Positions 10,473 to 12,919 of a stretch of DNA of 25,755 nucleotides are shown here, one piece after another. Position numbers and translations under genes: made by a program. The stretch is from the NCBI GenBank assembly GCA_023473795.1, contig JAMCYS010000152.1:1-25755 (forward strand), written 5' to 3'. The notes under the pieces were generated by a model. It was not told the DNA's origin. It saw nothing but the letters and a program-made list of their open reading frames with translations, and ran no database searches. Each line of letters begins with the position of its first letter. Position 1 is the first letter of the stretch. This DNA is from Chloroflexota bacterium. GTDB taxonomy: Bacteria; Chloroflexota; UBA6077; FW602-bin22; JAMCYS01.

Positions 10473-11231
10473 CTAGCCGCGTTTGCCCTCGCGGTACTCC
10501 TGAGCGTAGCGCCGGTTGTTGCTGACCACCTGAGCGGCGAAGTCCCGCAGGTGATTCGTCACCGGCGCCAGCGACCGAGCCCGCTCCGGCGTGTCCACGA
10601 TCGCCCCTGCCGGCACCAGGCGCCCATCCGGTATCTCTACGTCGGAGATGAACGCGCCGTGCCAGACTACGCAGCCGCGTCCGATCGTGCTGTTCACCAC
10701 CATCGTCCGAAAGCCGACGAAAGCACCGTCGCCGATAGCCACCGGGCCGTGCACGAACGCTTGGTGGGCCAAGGATACGTTCTTCCCGACCCAGACGGCA
10801 TACTGCTGGCCGCCCACGACAACCGAGCGCCCTTCCATGGCGTGGACGACGACCCCGTCCTGCACGTTACTACCATCGCCAATGGCTATCGGCGCCCCGC
10901 TGTCACCCCTGATTGAGGACCCCGGGGCGACGAAGACCTCGGCCCCCAATTGTACGTCGCCCACCACGCTCGCGGCAGGACTGATGAAGGCGCCCCGACC
11001 GAGGCGAACGGTGCGACCCACCTCTGCCGCCGGCATGGCGGCTGCCGCGGGTGGCGCGGGCCGGGCCGGAGGAGCAGCGACCGGCGTCTGAGCCGCAAAC
11101 GCCTCGCTCCCTGGGGCATCCGGCTCGGTTAGAGAACGCCCCAGGTTACCCCCGCCAGCCGGCAGGTCTGAGCCCGGCATGGGCATGTAGCCGATGGGCT
11201 GCATGCCCCCTTTGGGTTGGCCCTCGCTCAT
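10473..11231 (-). CDS. Gamma-class carbonic anhydrase family (left-handed beta-helix, hexapeptide repeat) protein with about 95-aa Pro/Ala-rich low-complexity N-terminal extension; all three Cam-type zinc-ligand His positions conserved
   Basis: [11 protein letters not shown] and [12 protein letters not shown] match the Cam motifs (H81, H117, H122 equivalents). The start ATG 11231..11229 overlaps the upstream mutase stop (ATGA). The ORF-track upstream extension has no RBS and is rejected. Confidence 0.75.
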
Positions 11232-12919
11232 AGCAGTACCTCCTGGTGAGTGCCAAAGACAGCGCGCAGCACGCCGCACATCTCGCCCAGCGTGCAGAGA
11301 CCCTCGGCGCAGGCGATCAGCCTTGGCATAAGATTCTCGTTGCCCCGCGCCGCCCGCTCCAGATCGCCCAGAAGCGTCTGCGCCCTCGCCCGGTCGCGCC
11401 GCGACCGCAGTTCGGCCAGTCGGCGCACCTGCACCTCGCGCACGGCGGGATCAACCCTCAGCAGCTCGATCTGCGCTCGTTCTGCCGTCTGGTACTTGTT
11501 CACGCCGACGATGACCCGCTCGCCCTCTTCGATCTCCTTCTGGTATCGGTAAGCGCTCGTGGCGATCTCCTGCTGGAAATAACCGCTCGTGATGCAGCGG
11601 ATCGTCCCCCCCATCTGGTCGATGCACGAGAGATAGCCCTGGGCCTCCTCCTCGATCCTATCGGTGAGAGACTCCACGAAGTAGGAGCCCCCCAGCGGAT
11701 CGACGGTGTCCGCAACCCCGCTCTCGTTGGCGATGATCTGCTGGGTGCGCAGGGCGATGCGCACCGCCCGCTCCGAGGGCAGGGCCAGAGCCTCGTCCAT
11801 GGAGTTGGTGTGCAGGGACTGGGTGCCTCCCAGCACCGCCGCCAGGGCCTGCAGGGTCACCCGCACCACGTTGTTTTCGGGCTGCTGGGCCGTGAGGGTG
11901 CAGCCAGCCGTCTGGGTATGGAAGCGCAGCATCCAGGAGCGCGGGTCCTTGGCGCCGAAGCGCTGCCGCATGATCTTGGCCCACAGCCGCCGGGCCGCCC
12001 GGTACTTGGCTATCTCCTCGAAGAAGTCGTTGTGCGCGTTGAAGAAGAAGGCGATGCGCGGAGCGAAGGAATCGACCGCCATTCCCCGCTTGACGGCCTC
12101 TTCCACGTAGGTTATGGCGTCGGCGAACGTGAAAGCCAACTCCTGCACGGCCGTGGAGCCCGCCTCCCGGATGTGATAGCCGCTGATCGAGATGGTGTTC
12201 CAGTTGGGTACCTGCTCGCTGCAATACTGCATCTGATCCACCACCAGCCTTAATGAGGGTCGGGGCGGAAAGATGTAAGTGCCGCGCGCGTAGTACTCTT
12301 TGAGGATGTCGTTCTGGGTGGTGCCGTTGAGCTTGGCGAGGGGCACGCCGCGCCGCTGGGCGACGGCGATCAGCATCGCCAGAATCGGCGCCGCGGTGGA
12401 GTTGGCCGTGACCGAGATGCTCACCTTCTCCAGGGGGATGCCCGAGAAAAGCACGTCGACGTCTTCCACGGAGTCTATCGCCACGCCAACCCGGCCAATC
12501 TCACCCAGGGCGATCGGATCGTCGGAATCGTAGCCGAGCTGCGTCGGCAGGTCGAAAGCCACCGAGAGTCCCGTCTGGCCCTGCTCCAGCAAGTAGCGGT
12601 AGCGCCGGTTCGACTCCGCGGCCGAGGCGTAGCCGGCGTACTGGCGCATCGTCCAGTACCGGCCGCGATACATGGTCGGCTGCACGCCTCGCGTGAAGGG
12701 ATACTCGCCGGGGAAACCGAGGTCGCGCAGGTAGTCGAAGTCCGGCAAGTCACCCGGAGCGTAGACGTCCTGGATGTCGACGTGCGACGTCGTCTGGAAC
12801 TCGGTGCGGCGCTCCGGCCAGCGAGCCTTCGCCGGGTCCAGAACGTCGCGTTGCCAGCGTTCCCTGGCGGCCCTCACCGGGGCAATCTGGCCGTCCCGGA
12901 CTTCTTCTGCCATGGCCAT
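11228..12919 (-). CDS. mcmA: Methylmalonyl-CoA-mutase-type large (catalytic) subunit with the MCM signature Tyr (TMRQYAGYA) and Arg ([12 protein letters not shown]), no B12-binding domain and no adjacent small subunit
   Basis: Full-length similarity to the MCM alpha TIM-barrel (about 75% identical to the icmA-like paralog at 6038..7711). Specificity residues were read from the motifs. An 11-nt gap separates it from the upstream BCCP gene. Confidence 0.8.

Follow-up and report, generated by a model that had tools for sequence, protein, structure and literature searches.

In the methylmalonyl-CoA mutase (MCM) of Propionibacterium shermanii (MutA/MutB, 1REQ) a fused B12 domain is combined with an inactive beta chain, and the substrate carboxylate is bound by Tyr89 and Arg207 (P. 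shermanii numbering). Isobutyryl-CoA mutase (ICM) IcmA/IcmB from Streptomyces cinnamonensis is a split enzyme with a separate small subunit and the signature Phe80/Gln198, and 2-hydroxyisobutyryl-CoA mutase HcmA/HcmB is likewise built of two chains. Split MCMs have been described in Metallosphaera sedula, where, according to the account of Han et al. (2012) given in PMC6759758, the large subunit is Msed_0638, the small subunit Msed_2055 and the epimerase Msed_0639, and in Chloroflexus aurantiacus, which possesses the large subunit Caur_1844 and the adjacent pair Caur_2508/Caur_2509 (PMC3150298). Separately encoded, often unlinked large and small subunits are normal in Chloroflexota and archaea.

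We analyzed a stretch of 25,755 nucleotides from a Chloroflexota bacterium (GCA_023473795.1, contig JAMCYS010000152.1), referred to as "the window". The original prediction regarded its MCM-type large-subunit gene (11228-12919) as an "orphan" without a B12-binding subunit of its own, coupled instead to a gamma-carbonic-anhydrase-like (gamma-CA-like) gene. Our analysis favors a different reading: with good but not full confidence we predict a split MCM whose partner is encoded in the same operon (5593-6003) and most likely serves also a second, Phe/Gln-type large subunit. The main value of this result is a correction, as a mutase large subunit that lacks an adjoining B12 gene is normal in Chloroflexota and archaea and the partner lies further down the operon; a modest interest remains in the recurrence of operons that pair two catalytic subunits with a single cofactor subunit.

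As far as the M. sedula system is described in the source cited above, it shares with the window a large subunit of ~560 aa and a separate B12-binding subunit of ~140 aa, an epimerase gene near the large subunit and the Tyr/Arg active site. However, the M. sedula subunit genes are unlinked, whereas both are in one operon in the window, which adds a second large-subunit paralog beside the small subunit, as well as carboxyl-transfer genes. The C. aurantiacus enzyme comes from the same phylum, is split, and has a large subunit without an adjoining B12-binding subunit; the same layout, with the small subunit followed by MeaB, is found in Chloroflexus islandicus (locus L028). In the window, by contrast, the small subunit belongs to the large subunit's operon and no MeaB follows it. 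With P. shermanii the window has in common the Tyr89/Arg207 active site and the Wood-Werkman context of 12S, 5S and biotin-carrier genes (12S/5S/1.3S transcarboxylase) plus epimerase, but encodes the B12 domain as a protein of its own. The split architecture is shared with IcmA/IcmB, whose Phe/Gln signature recurs in the paralog at 6038-7711, while the gene at 11228-12919 is, unlike IcmA, of the Tyr/Arg (MCM) type. The two-chain HcmA/HcmB (4R3U) is the best solved-structure match for both large subunits (E = 1e-172 and 1e-169), although its specificity positions are Ile/Asp (RQIAG, STDFD), in contrast to Tyr/Ala in the MCM-type gene (RQYAG, SVAFD), which also has Arg instead of Gln.

The two catalytic subunits

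The MCM-type ORF encodes 563 aa. An exact-sequence look-up with this version gave no match (the NCBI gene call starts at the second ATG, at 12913, and comprises 561 aa). Profile searches gave a full-length match to PF01642 (all 512 profile positions, 1-512; 760 bits, E = 1e-228) and one to TIGR00641 with 795 bits (cut-off 304), and detected no fused B12 domain, in agreement with the original prediction. A fused single-chain MCM could be ruled out on the same grounds, because the product has no C-terminal B12 domain and scored 658 bits against NF006944, the profile of that ~720-aa form (cut-off 876, profile positions 29-553 of 721 covered). The MCM signature that had been claimed for this gene was also confirmed: in the alignment its RQYAG and EYYARG motifs fall on Tyr89 and Arg207 of human and P. 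shermanii MCM (RQYAGF and EFMVRNTY in the human protein), and SGYHIREAG corresponds to human SGYHMQEAG, with Tyr243/His244 (P. shermanii numbering) retained. The QY/R signature is present in all 120 top homologs. Relatives recovered from metagenomes with the large subunit as query had at most 66% identity and served for statistics, not for the window's own lineage. From its sequence, the gene is predicted to encode the ordinary catalytic subunit of a two-piece B12-dependent MCM of class EC 5.4.99.2, a known kind of enzyme that would interconvert (R)-methylmalonyl-CoA and succinyl-CoA with AdoCbl.

The second large subunit has Phe and Gln at the positions aligned with Tyr89 and Arg207. Its identity to the MCM-type protein is lower than the ~75% first stated, namely 62% (77% positives) at the protein level and 68.6% at the DNA level. 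RMFAG...Q is the signature in 117 of 120 homologs of this family, and the paralog belongs to an RMFAG clade, as distinct from the canonical ICM-like genes in Acidobacteriota loci, which carry RQFAG. We rejected a recent tandem duplication as its origin, because each of the two families is old and widely distributed and has more than 100 homologs with a fixed signature of its own. A literature search on the RMFAG clade returned nothing relevant; this widespread, uncharacterised group consistently adjoins the MCM-type gene and the epimerase.

Layout of the operon

The genes follow each other in the order thiolase, 3-hydroxyacyl-CoA dehydrogenase, 12S/5S/1.3S carboxyl-transfer genes, mutase, an intervening block (gamma-CA-like, NfeD-like, flotillin), epimerase, Phe/Gln paralog and B12-binding subunit (Table 1). 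The biotin carboxyl-transfer block (12931..16539, minus strand) lies directly upstream of the mutase gene, with 11 nt between the biotin-carrier stop and the mutase start, and from the biotin carrier to the small subunit the gaps between genes range from -4 to 96 nt. On the minus strand no intergenic terminator-like site was found between the MCM-type gene and the small subunit, nor was any convincing intergenic terminator or promoter found to divide the cluster. We rejected a terminator-like hairpin with a 12-bp stem at 11181-11208: its fold has a z-score of -1.2, and the IGY(M/I)P peptide encoded there accounts for its conservation. To the right, the window ends where the contig ends.

Table 1. 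Genes of the mutase cluster in the window, with the domain or profile evidence for each
Feature	Coordinates	Strand	Evidence and remarks
12S carboxyltransferase	14980-16539	-	Carboxyl_trans; mmdA-like TIGR01117, 813 bits
5S subunit	13477-14961	-	HMGL-like with PYC_OADA
Biotin carrier	12931-13461	-	Biotin_lipoyl
MCM-type large subunit	11228-12919	-	PF01642, TIGR00641; predicted catalytic subunit of split AdoCbl-dependent MCM
Gamma-carbonic-anhydrase-like protein, Cam/CcmM class	10473-11231	-	Hexapep; start overlaps MCM-type stop
NfeD-like membrane protein	9823-10449	-	NfeD_TM annotated in relatives
Flotillin	8240-9757	-	Band_7/Flot; FloT-like NF058507, 496 bits (cut-off 700)
Methylmalonyl-CoA epimerase	7808-8230	-	TIGR03081, 141.5 bits (cut-off 115)
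Second large subunit, ICM-like Phe/Gln signature	6038-7711	-	PF01642; RLFAG...EYTAQ
B12-binding small subunit, 136 aa	5593-6003	-	PF02310, TIGR00640; putative partner of MCM-type large subunit

In almost every related locus the epimerase comes after the MCM-type gene. Between the two, the NfeD-like and flotillin genes are inserted in six members of the window's lineage (MCM-type relatives at 70% identity or more), not in L165 or the outgroups. The gamma-CA-like gene is present in the window, L001-L003 and L166, and is missing from L164, L165, the outgroups and all more distant clusters. All three genes are lineage-specific insertions.

The B12-binding small subunit carries the motifs DGHDRG (DxHxxG), SILSG (SxL) and LVGG (GG), and its closest PDB entries are 2yxb and then HcmB (4r3u_C, E = 3e-38). 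A scan of genome contigs with this protein gave a best match of 75% identity, from outside the window's own lineage. Only one B12-binding subunit was found by six-frame tblastn of the window, other matches being noise at E-values up to 10. The original prediction was therefore right that there is a single such gene, but its placing of that gene beside the ICM-type paralog is misleading, since the co-directional string includes the MCM-type gene. The small subunit gene follows the MCM-type gene at a distance of 5.2 kb, on the same strand and in the same string, without an intergenic terminator in between, and this arrangement is conserved in all close relatives; hence "orphan" is the wrong reading.

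Assignment of the small subunit

The product of 5593-6003 is probably the partner of the MCM-type subunit, and is probably common to the Phe/Gln paralog. In this arrangement the MCM-type product would be the substrate-binding TIM-barrel subunit within a methylmalonyl-CoA pathway operon, to which the 136-aa protein from the distal operon end would supply cobalamin binding; the two would assemble into a large/small heteromeric holoenzyme, as in archaeal MCM or HcmAB, and the same small subunit would also serve the paralog encoded directly upstream of its gene. The analysis shows which domains are present, the active-site signature, how the genes are ordered and that they are inherited together; the physical pairing, the sharing and the enzyme activity are predictions. 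The assignment follows from the retention of the small subunit where the Phe/Gln paralog is missing, from congruent trees, from the composition of distant clusters, and from the finding that none of 172 loci contains two small subunits. The small subunit follows the MCM-type gene on the same strand in seven of seven lineage members, at a distance of 1.25-5.9 kb. Among 21 more distant QY/R loci it is found at most 3.4 kb downstream in 13, and more distant Chloroflexota clusters have the order MCM, epimerase, Phe/Gln large subunit, small subunit, MeaB. Small subunits linked to the MCM type, linked to the MF/Q type or standing alone are intermixed within one Chloroflexota clade, and one small subunit and both types of large subunit occur in a single gene string in eight independent loci. 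The original prediction had left it undecided whether the two catalytic subunits share one B12-binding subunit or the MCM partner is encoded elsewhere; these loci, together with the retention of the small subunit after loss of the Phe/Gln gene, favor sharing. A literature search for a described shared small subunit returned nothing relevant.

Under the opposite assumption, which we regard as unlikely, the MCM-type protein would use another small subunit from elsewhere in the genome, e.g. from a stand-alone small-subunit-MeaB pair, and 5593-6003 would serve only the Phe/Gln paralog. Such pairs do exist: we found 28 stand-alone small-subunit-MeaB loci in Chloroflexota that lack a large-subunit gene within 10 kb, including that of C. 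islandicus, and in C. aurantiacus Caur_1844 is unlinked to Caur_2508/2509. Three loci (L084, L089, L103) encode the two large subunits but have no small-subunit gene within 5-7 kb, therefore trans-encoded partners do occur in the phylum. Moreover, MeaB is missing from the cluster, and a distant MeaB locus might hold a second small subunit, this being the phylum's usual pairing. Against this, the cluster does not always include the Phe/Gln paralog: it is missing from three of the seven lineage members (L003, L164, L165), and in each of them the small subunit has persisted intact downstream of the MCM-type gene. The paralog was lost twice independently, because L003 and L164 each have a sister genome that carries it; had the small subunit been reserved for the paralog, its decay would be expected after such losses. 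The phylogeny of the small subunit also follows that of the MCM-type protein: the clades (L002, L003) and (L001, L164), with bootstrap values of 100% and 96-99% in the MCM-type tree, are recovered at 86% and 92% in the small-subunit tree (both are neighbour-joining trees with few taxa, and the small-subunit alignment has only 136 columns), which identifies the retained small subunits of L003 and L164 as orthologs.

Instead of two separate enzymes with a common small subunit, both large subunits could form one mixed complex (alpha-alpha'-beta2), comparable to the P. shermanii MutA/MutB heterodimer; the 62% identity of the paralogs and the recurrence of both genes with a single small subunit in one operon in the eight loci would fit such a complex. 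We consider it very improbable, because both paralogs have complete, differing active-site signatures, unlike the degenerate MutA, and because each type is also found alone with a small subunit (MF/Q in L100, L142 and L160; QY/R in L003, L164, L165, L091 and L093), therefore neither depends on the other. Still harder to believe is a functional partnership between the mutase and the gamma-CA-like protein, as hinted at by their translational coupling, with the latter serving either as a PaaY-like acyl-CoA thioesterase or in place of an accessory factor. The overlap of its start with the mutase stop, reported in the original prediction, is real (ATGA, 11231-11228, 4 bases, with AGGAGG 8 nt upstream), is retained as ATGA or GTGA in four relatives, and makes, with its strong Shine-Dalgarno sequence, a junction conserved in five genomes. 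CoA thioesters are, besides, substrates of some gamma-CA-like proteins. However, the protein is nearest to the true carbonic anhydrases (closest PDB entries CcmM 3kwc and Cam, E = 1e-44 to 1e-40) and not to PaaY/CaiE, and its homologs outside the lineage are annotated as ordinary carbonic anhydrases. Compared with the catalytic Arg59/Asp61/Glu62/Glu84 it keeps the Arg, the Asp and the Glu84 equivalent, along with the three metal-binding His residues, while Glu62 is replaced by Ser (RGDSG versus RADEG/RGDEG); its NF040597 score is 159 bits against a cut-off of 380. The absence of its gene from L164, the sister of L001, from L165 and from every more distant MCM cluster also speaks against such a role. 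The proposed coupling of the mutase to this gene in place of a small subunit or chaperone is thus not supported: we found a lineage-specific insertion and nothing that points to replacement of either.

MeaB and a possible modular B12 subunit

As originally predicted, the window encodes no MeaB/ArgK G3E GTPase (PF03308; six-frame tblastn gave only noise at E-values up to 10). A further 5.8 kb to the left of the window contain neither MeaB nor a B12 gene, and in six relatives no MeaB was found within 10 kb of the MCM-type gene. The ancestral Chloroflexota module had MeaB after the small subunit, but MeaB has left the cluster in the window's lineage. There an Fe-alcohol dehydrogenase gene occupies the MeaB position, thus MeaB must be encoded elsewhere or have been lost. 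The evidence is about evenly balanced as to whether Chloroflexota use a general modular design, in which one B12-binding subunit would serve two catalytic subunits that differ in specificity, a Tyr/Arg MCM and an RMFAG...Q enzyme, with MeaB included in most relatives and unlinked in the window's lineage. If the sharing is true, MeaB and adenosyltransferase would load and repair the cofactor on one B12 module common to both enzymes, and this module could dock onto different barrels, which would help to understand the specificity of acyl-CoA mutases and to engineer them. MeaB directly follows the small subunit in L061, L087, L167 and L168, as well as in the 28 stand-alone small-subunit loci, an arrangement that agrees with the reported action of MeaB on the Cbl-binding domain (PMC9974510).

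A split mutase in a long series of minus-strand genes

The MCM-type gene encodes a genuine mutase large subunit, which matches the whole PF01642 profile (E = 1e-228). A stretch of 22 residues and the motif SGYHIREAG align with Tyr89, Arg207 and Tyr243/His244 of the human and P. shermanii MCM, so that the active site is the same as in MCM; the Gln-Tyr/Arg signature recurs in 120 of the 120 closest database homologs. The second large subunit has Phe and Gln at the positions of Tyr89 and Arg207. The identity of about 75% originally given for the two paralogs was too high: the proteins are 62% identical (77% positives) and the genes 68.6%. 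The MCM-type protein indeed lacks a fused B12 domain, and it misses the fused-MCM equivalog NF006944 (658 vs. the cut-off of 876 bits). It belongs to the split kind of MCM already known and shares its architecture with HcmAB and the archaeal enzymes. Among PDB entries, both large subunits match HcmA best; for the small subunit, HcmB comes second to 2yxb.

Nearly all of the region from 4.2 to 18.9 kb is one series of minus-strand genes (see table), with the pathway context of the propionibacterial transcarboxylase/MCM/epimerase route. From the biotin carrier to the small subunit the intergenic gaps range from -4 to 96 nt, and no intergenic terminator-like sites were found on the minus strand of this segment.

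Genes of the mutase cluster in the window
Feature	Position	Strand	Remark
Thiolase	17612-18877	-	
3-hydroxyacyl-CoA dehydrogenase	16564-17463	-	
12S-type carboxyltransferase	14980-16539	-	
5S-type subunit	13477-14961	-	HMGL-like + PYC_OADA
Biotin carrier	12931-13461	-	
MCM-type mutase large subunit	11228-12919	-	
Gamma-CA-like protein	10473-11231	-	hexapeptide-repeat
NfeD-like protein	9823-10449	-	
Flotillin	8240-9757	-	
Methylmalonyl-CoA epimerase	7808-8230	-	TIGR03081, above cut-off
Phe/Gln mutase large subunit	6038-7711	-	
B12-binding small subunit	5593-6003	-	
Fe-alcohol dehydrogenase	4229-5395	-	

In two outgroup loci whose MCM-type protein is 68% identical to that of the window, the slot of the 5S-type pyruvate carboxyltransferase is taken by a biotin carboxylase (ATP-grasp; L167 7947-9455, L168 4088-5593), and therefore one operon frame occurs in propionyl-CoA carboxylase and transcarboxylase versions. 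The thiolase and 3-hydroxyacyl-CoA dehydrogenase form the operon head (16564-18877); together with the Fe-alcohol dehydrogenase they hint at C4 (butyryl/isobutyryl) metabolism wired to the propionate/succinate route.

A probable partner for the MCM-type subunit

We compared the neighbourhoods of the relatives' loci and of another 160 loci taken from two collection scans, annotated by tblastn, with MeaB (the G-protein chaperone) checked by Pfam. Most facts of the original prediction stand, including the single B12-binding subunit and the absence of MeaB in the window (six-frame tblastn), but not its description of the MCM-type gene as an orphan: in all seven genomes with an MCM-type protein at least 70% identical, the small subunit is kept 1.25-5.9 kb downstream on the same strand. 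Three of the seven lack the Phe/Gln-type gene, the epimerase being followed by the small subunit and Fe-alcohol dehydrogenase (L003), by a pyrophosphatase and the small subunit (L164), or by a CobA-type adenosyltransferase and the small subunit (L165). Neighbour-joining trees (200 bootstraps) of the MCM-type protein, of 12S plus epimerase and of their concatenation group L002 with L003 (100%) and L001 with L164 (96-99%; 80% on 12S plus epimerase alone), and the small-subunit tree has the same two clades (86% and 92%). Since L001 and L002 both carry the Phe/Gln gene, it was lost at least twice, and each time the small subunit stayed intact. A small subunit dedicated to the Phe/Gln enzyme should have vanished with it; the simplest reading is that it would be the partner of the MCM-type subunit.

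That the true partner is encoded elsewhere seems unlikely to us in view of this retention. Its main support is the doubt over MeaB: the gene may have been lost, or it may lie at another locus, perhaps alongside a second small subunit. Neither MeaB nor a B12-binding subunit occurs in the 5.8 kb beyond the window's left end, and in six relatives no MeaB lies closer than 10 kb to the MCM-type gene; where the outgroups have MeaB behind the small subunit, this lineage has the Fe-alcohol dehydrogenase (as in the window) or other genes. The tight pairing of small-subunit and MeaB genes fits the published docking of MeaB onto the Cbl-binding domain (PMC9974510). A CobA/BtuR-type ATP:cob(I)alamin adenosyltransferase gene (PF02572) lies just after the epimerase in two relatives, immediately ahead of the small subunit in L165 (6571-7143) and ahead of the second large subunit in L168 (8301-8870); the window contains none.

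A small subunit probably shared by two large subunits

The small subunit is probably common to both large subunits, so that the sharing originally offered as one option is probably right. Four outgroup loci (L061, L087, L167, L168) have the order MCM-type, epimerase, (adenosyltransferase), Phe/Gln-type, small subunit, MeaB; eight independent loci combine both large-subunit types with exactly one small subunit, and none of 172 loci has two. Chloroflexota small subunits that are MCM-linked, MF/Q-linked or alone with MeaB are mixed within one clade, with no sign of a paralog-specific form. In some loci (L084, L089, L103) both large subunits occur without a small subunit nearby, and 28 loci have a small-subunit-MeaB pair without a large subunit within 10 kb; pairing in trans therefore appears routine in Chloroflexota, in agreement with the literature on the C. 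aurantiacus MCM (Caur_1844 with the pair Caur_2508/2509; PMC3150298) and the M. sedula enzyme (unlinked Msed_0638 and Msed_2055, as cited in PMC6759758). Two points of interest remain: the conserved combination of one B12 subunit with two catalytic subunits, and the RMFAG...Q clade, itself uncharacterised.

The Phe/Gln paralog falls within this large Chloroflexota clade (~559 aa; also L061, L084, L087, L089, L095-L163), whose genes often directly follow an MCM-type gene and epimerase. The motif is found in 117 of the 120 top matches, the window copy reading RLFAG; in Acidobacteriota loci, the canonical ICM-like genes adjoining small subunits read RQFAG...Q.

Inserted and flanking genes

The ATGA stop/start overlap of the MCM-type and gamma-CA-like genes (11231-11228) is real, preceded by AGGAGG, and is retained in four relatives as ATGA or GTGA. 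It was originally taken as a coupling in place of the missing partners, but it denotes co-translation and does not show that the gamma-CA-like protein stands in for a subunit or chaperone. The nearest known proteins to the gamma-CA-like one are CcmM (3kwc) and Cam; the three His ligands, Arg59, Asp61 and Glu84 are retained, catalytic Glu62 is replaced by Ser (RGDSG), and a low-complexity, Gly/Pro-rich N-terminal extension of ~75 aa is absent from Cam and CcmM. Five lineage genomes carry the gene, whereas L164, L165 and every cluster further away lack it; homologs beyond the lineage are annotated as ordinary carbonic anhydrases. The gamma-CA-like, NfeD and flotillin genes are lineage-specific insertions. 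We found no explanation for a membrane-microdomain scaffold within a metabolic operon; the NfeD-flotillin pair (8240-10449), with the mutase on one side and the epimerase on the other, is kept in six related genomes (window, L001-L003, L164, L166) and absent from more distant clusters. Downstream of the cluster, divergent genes for a GlcD-like FAD oxidase and a GlcF-like Fe-S (CCG domain) protein (1171-3701, plus strand) keep the same position in L003.
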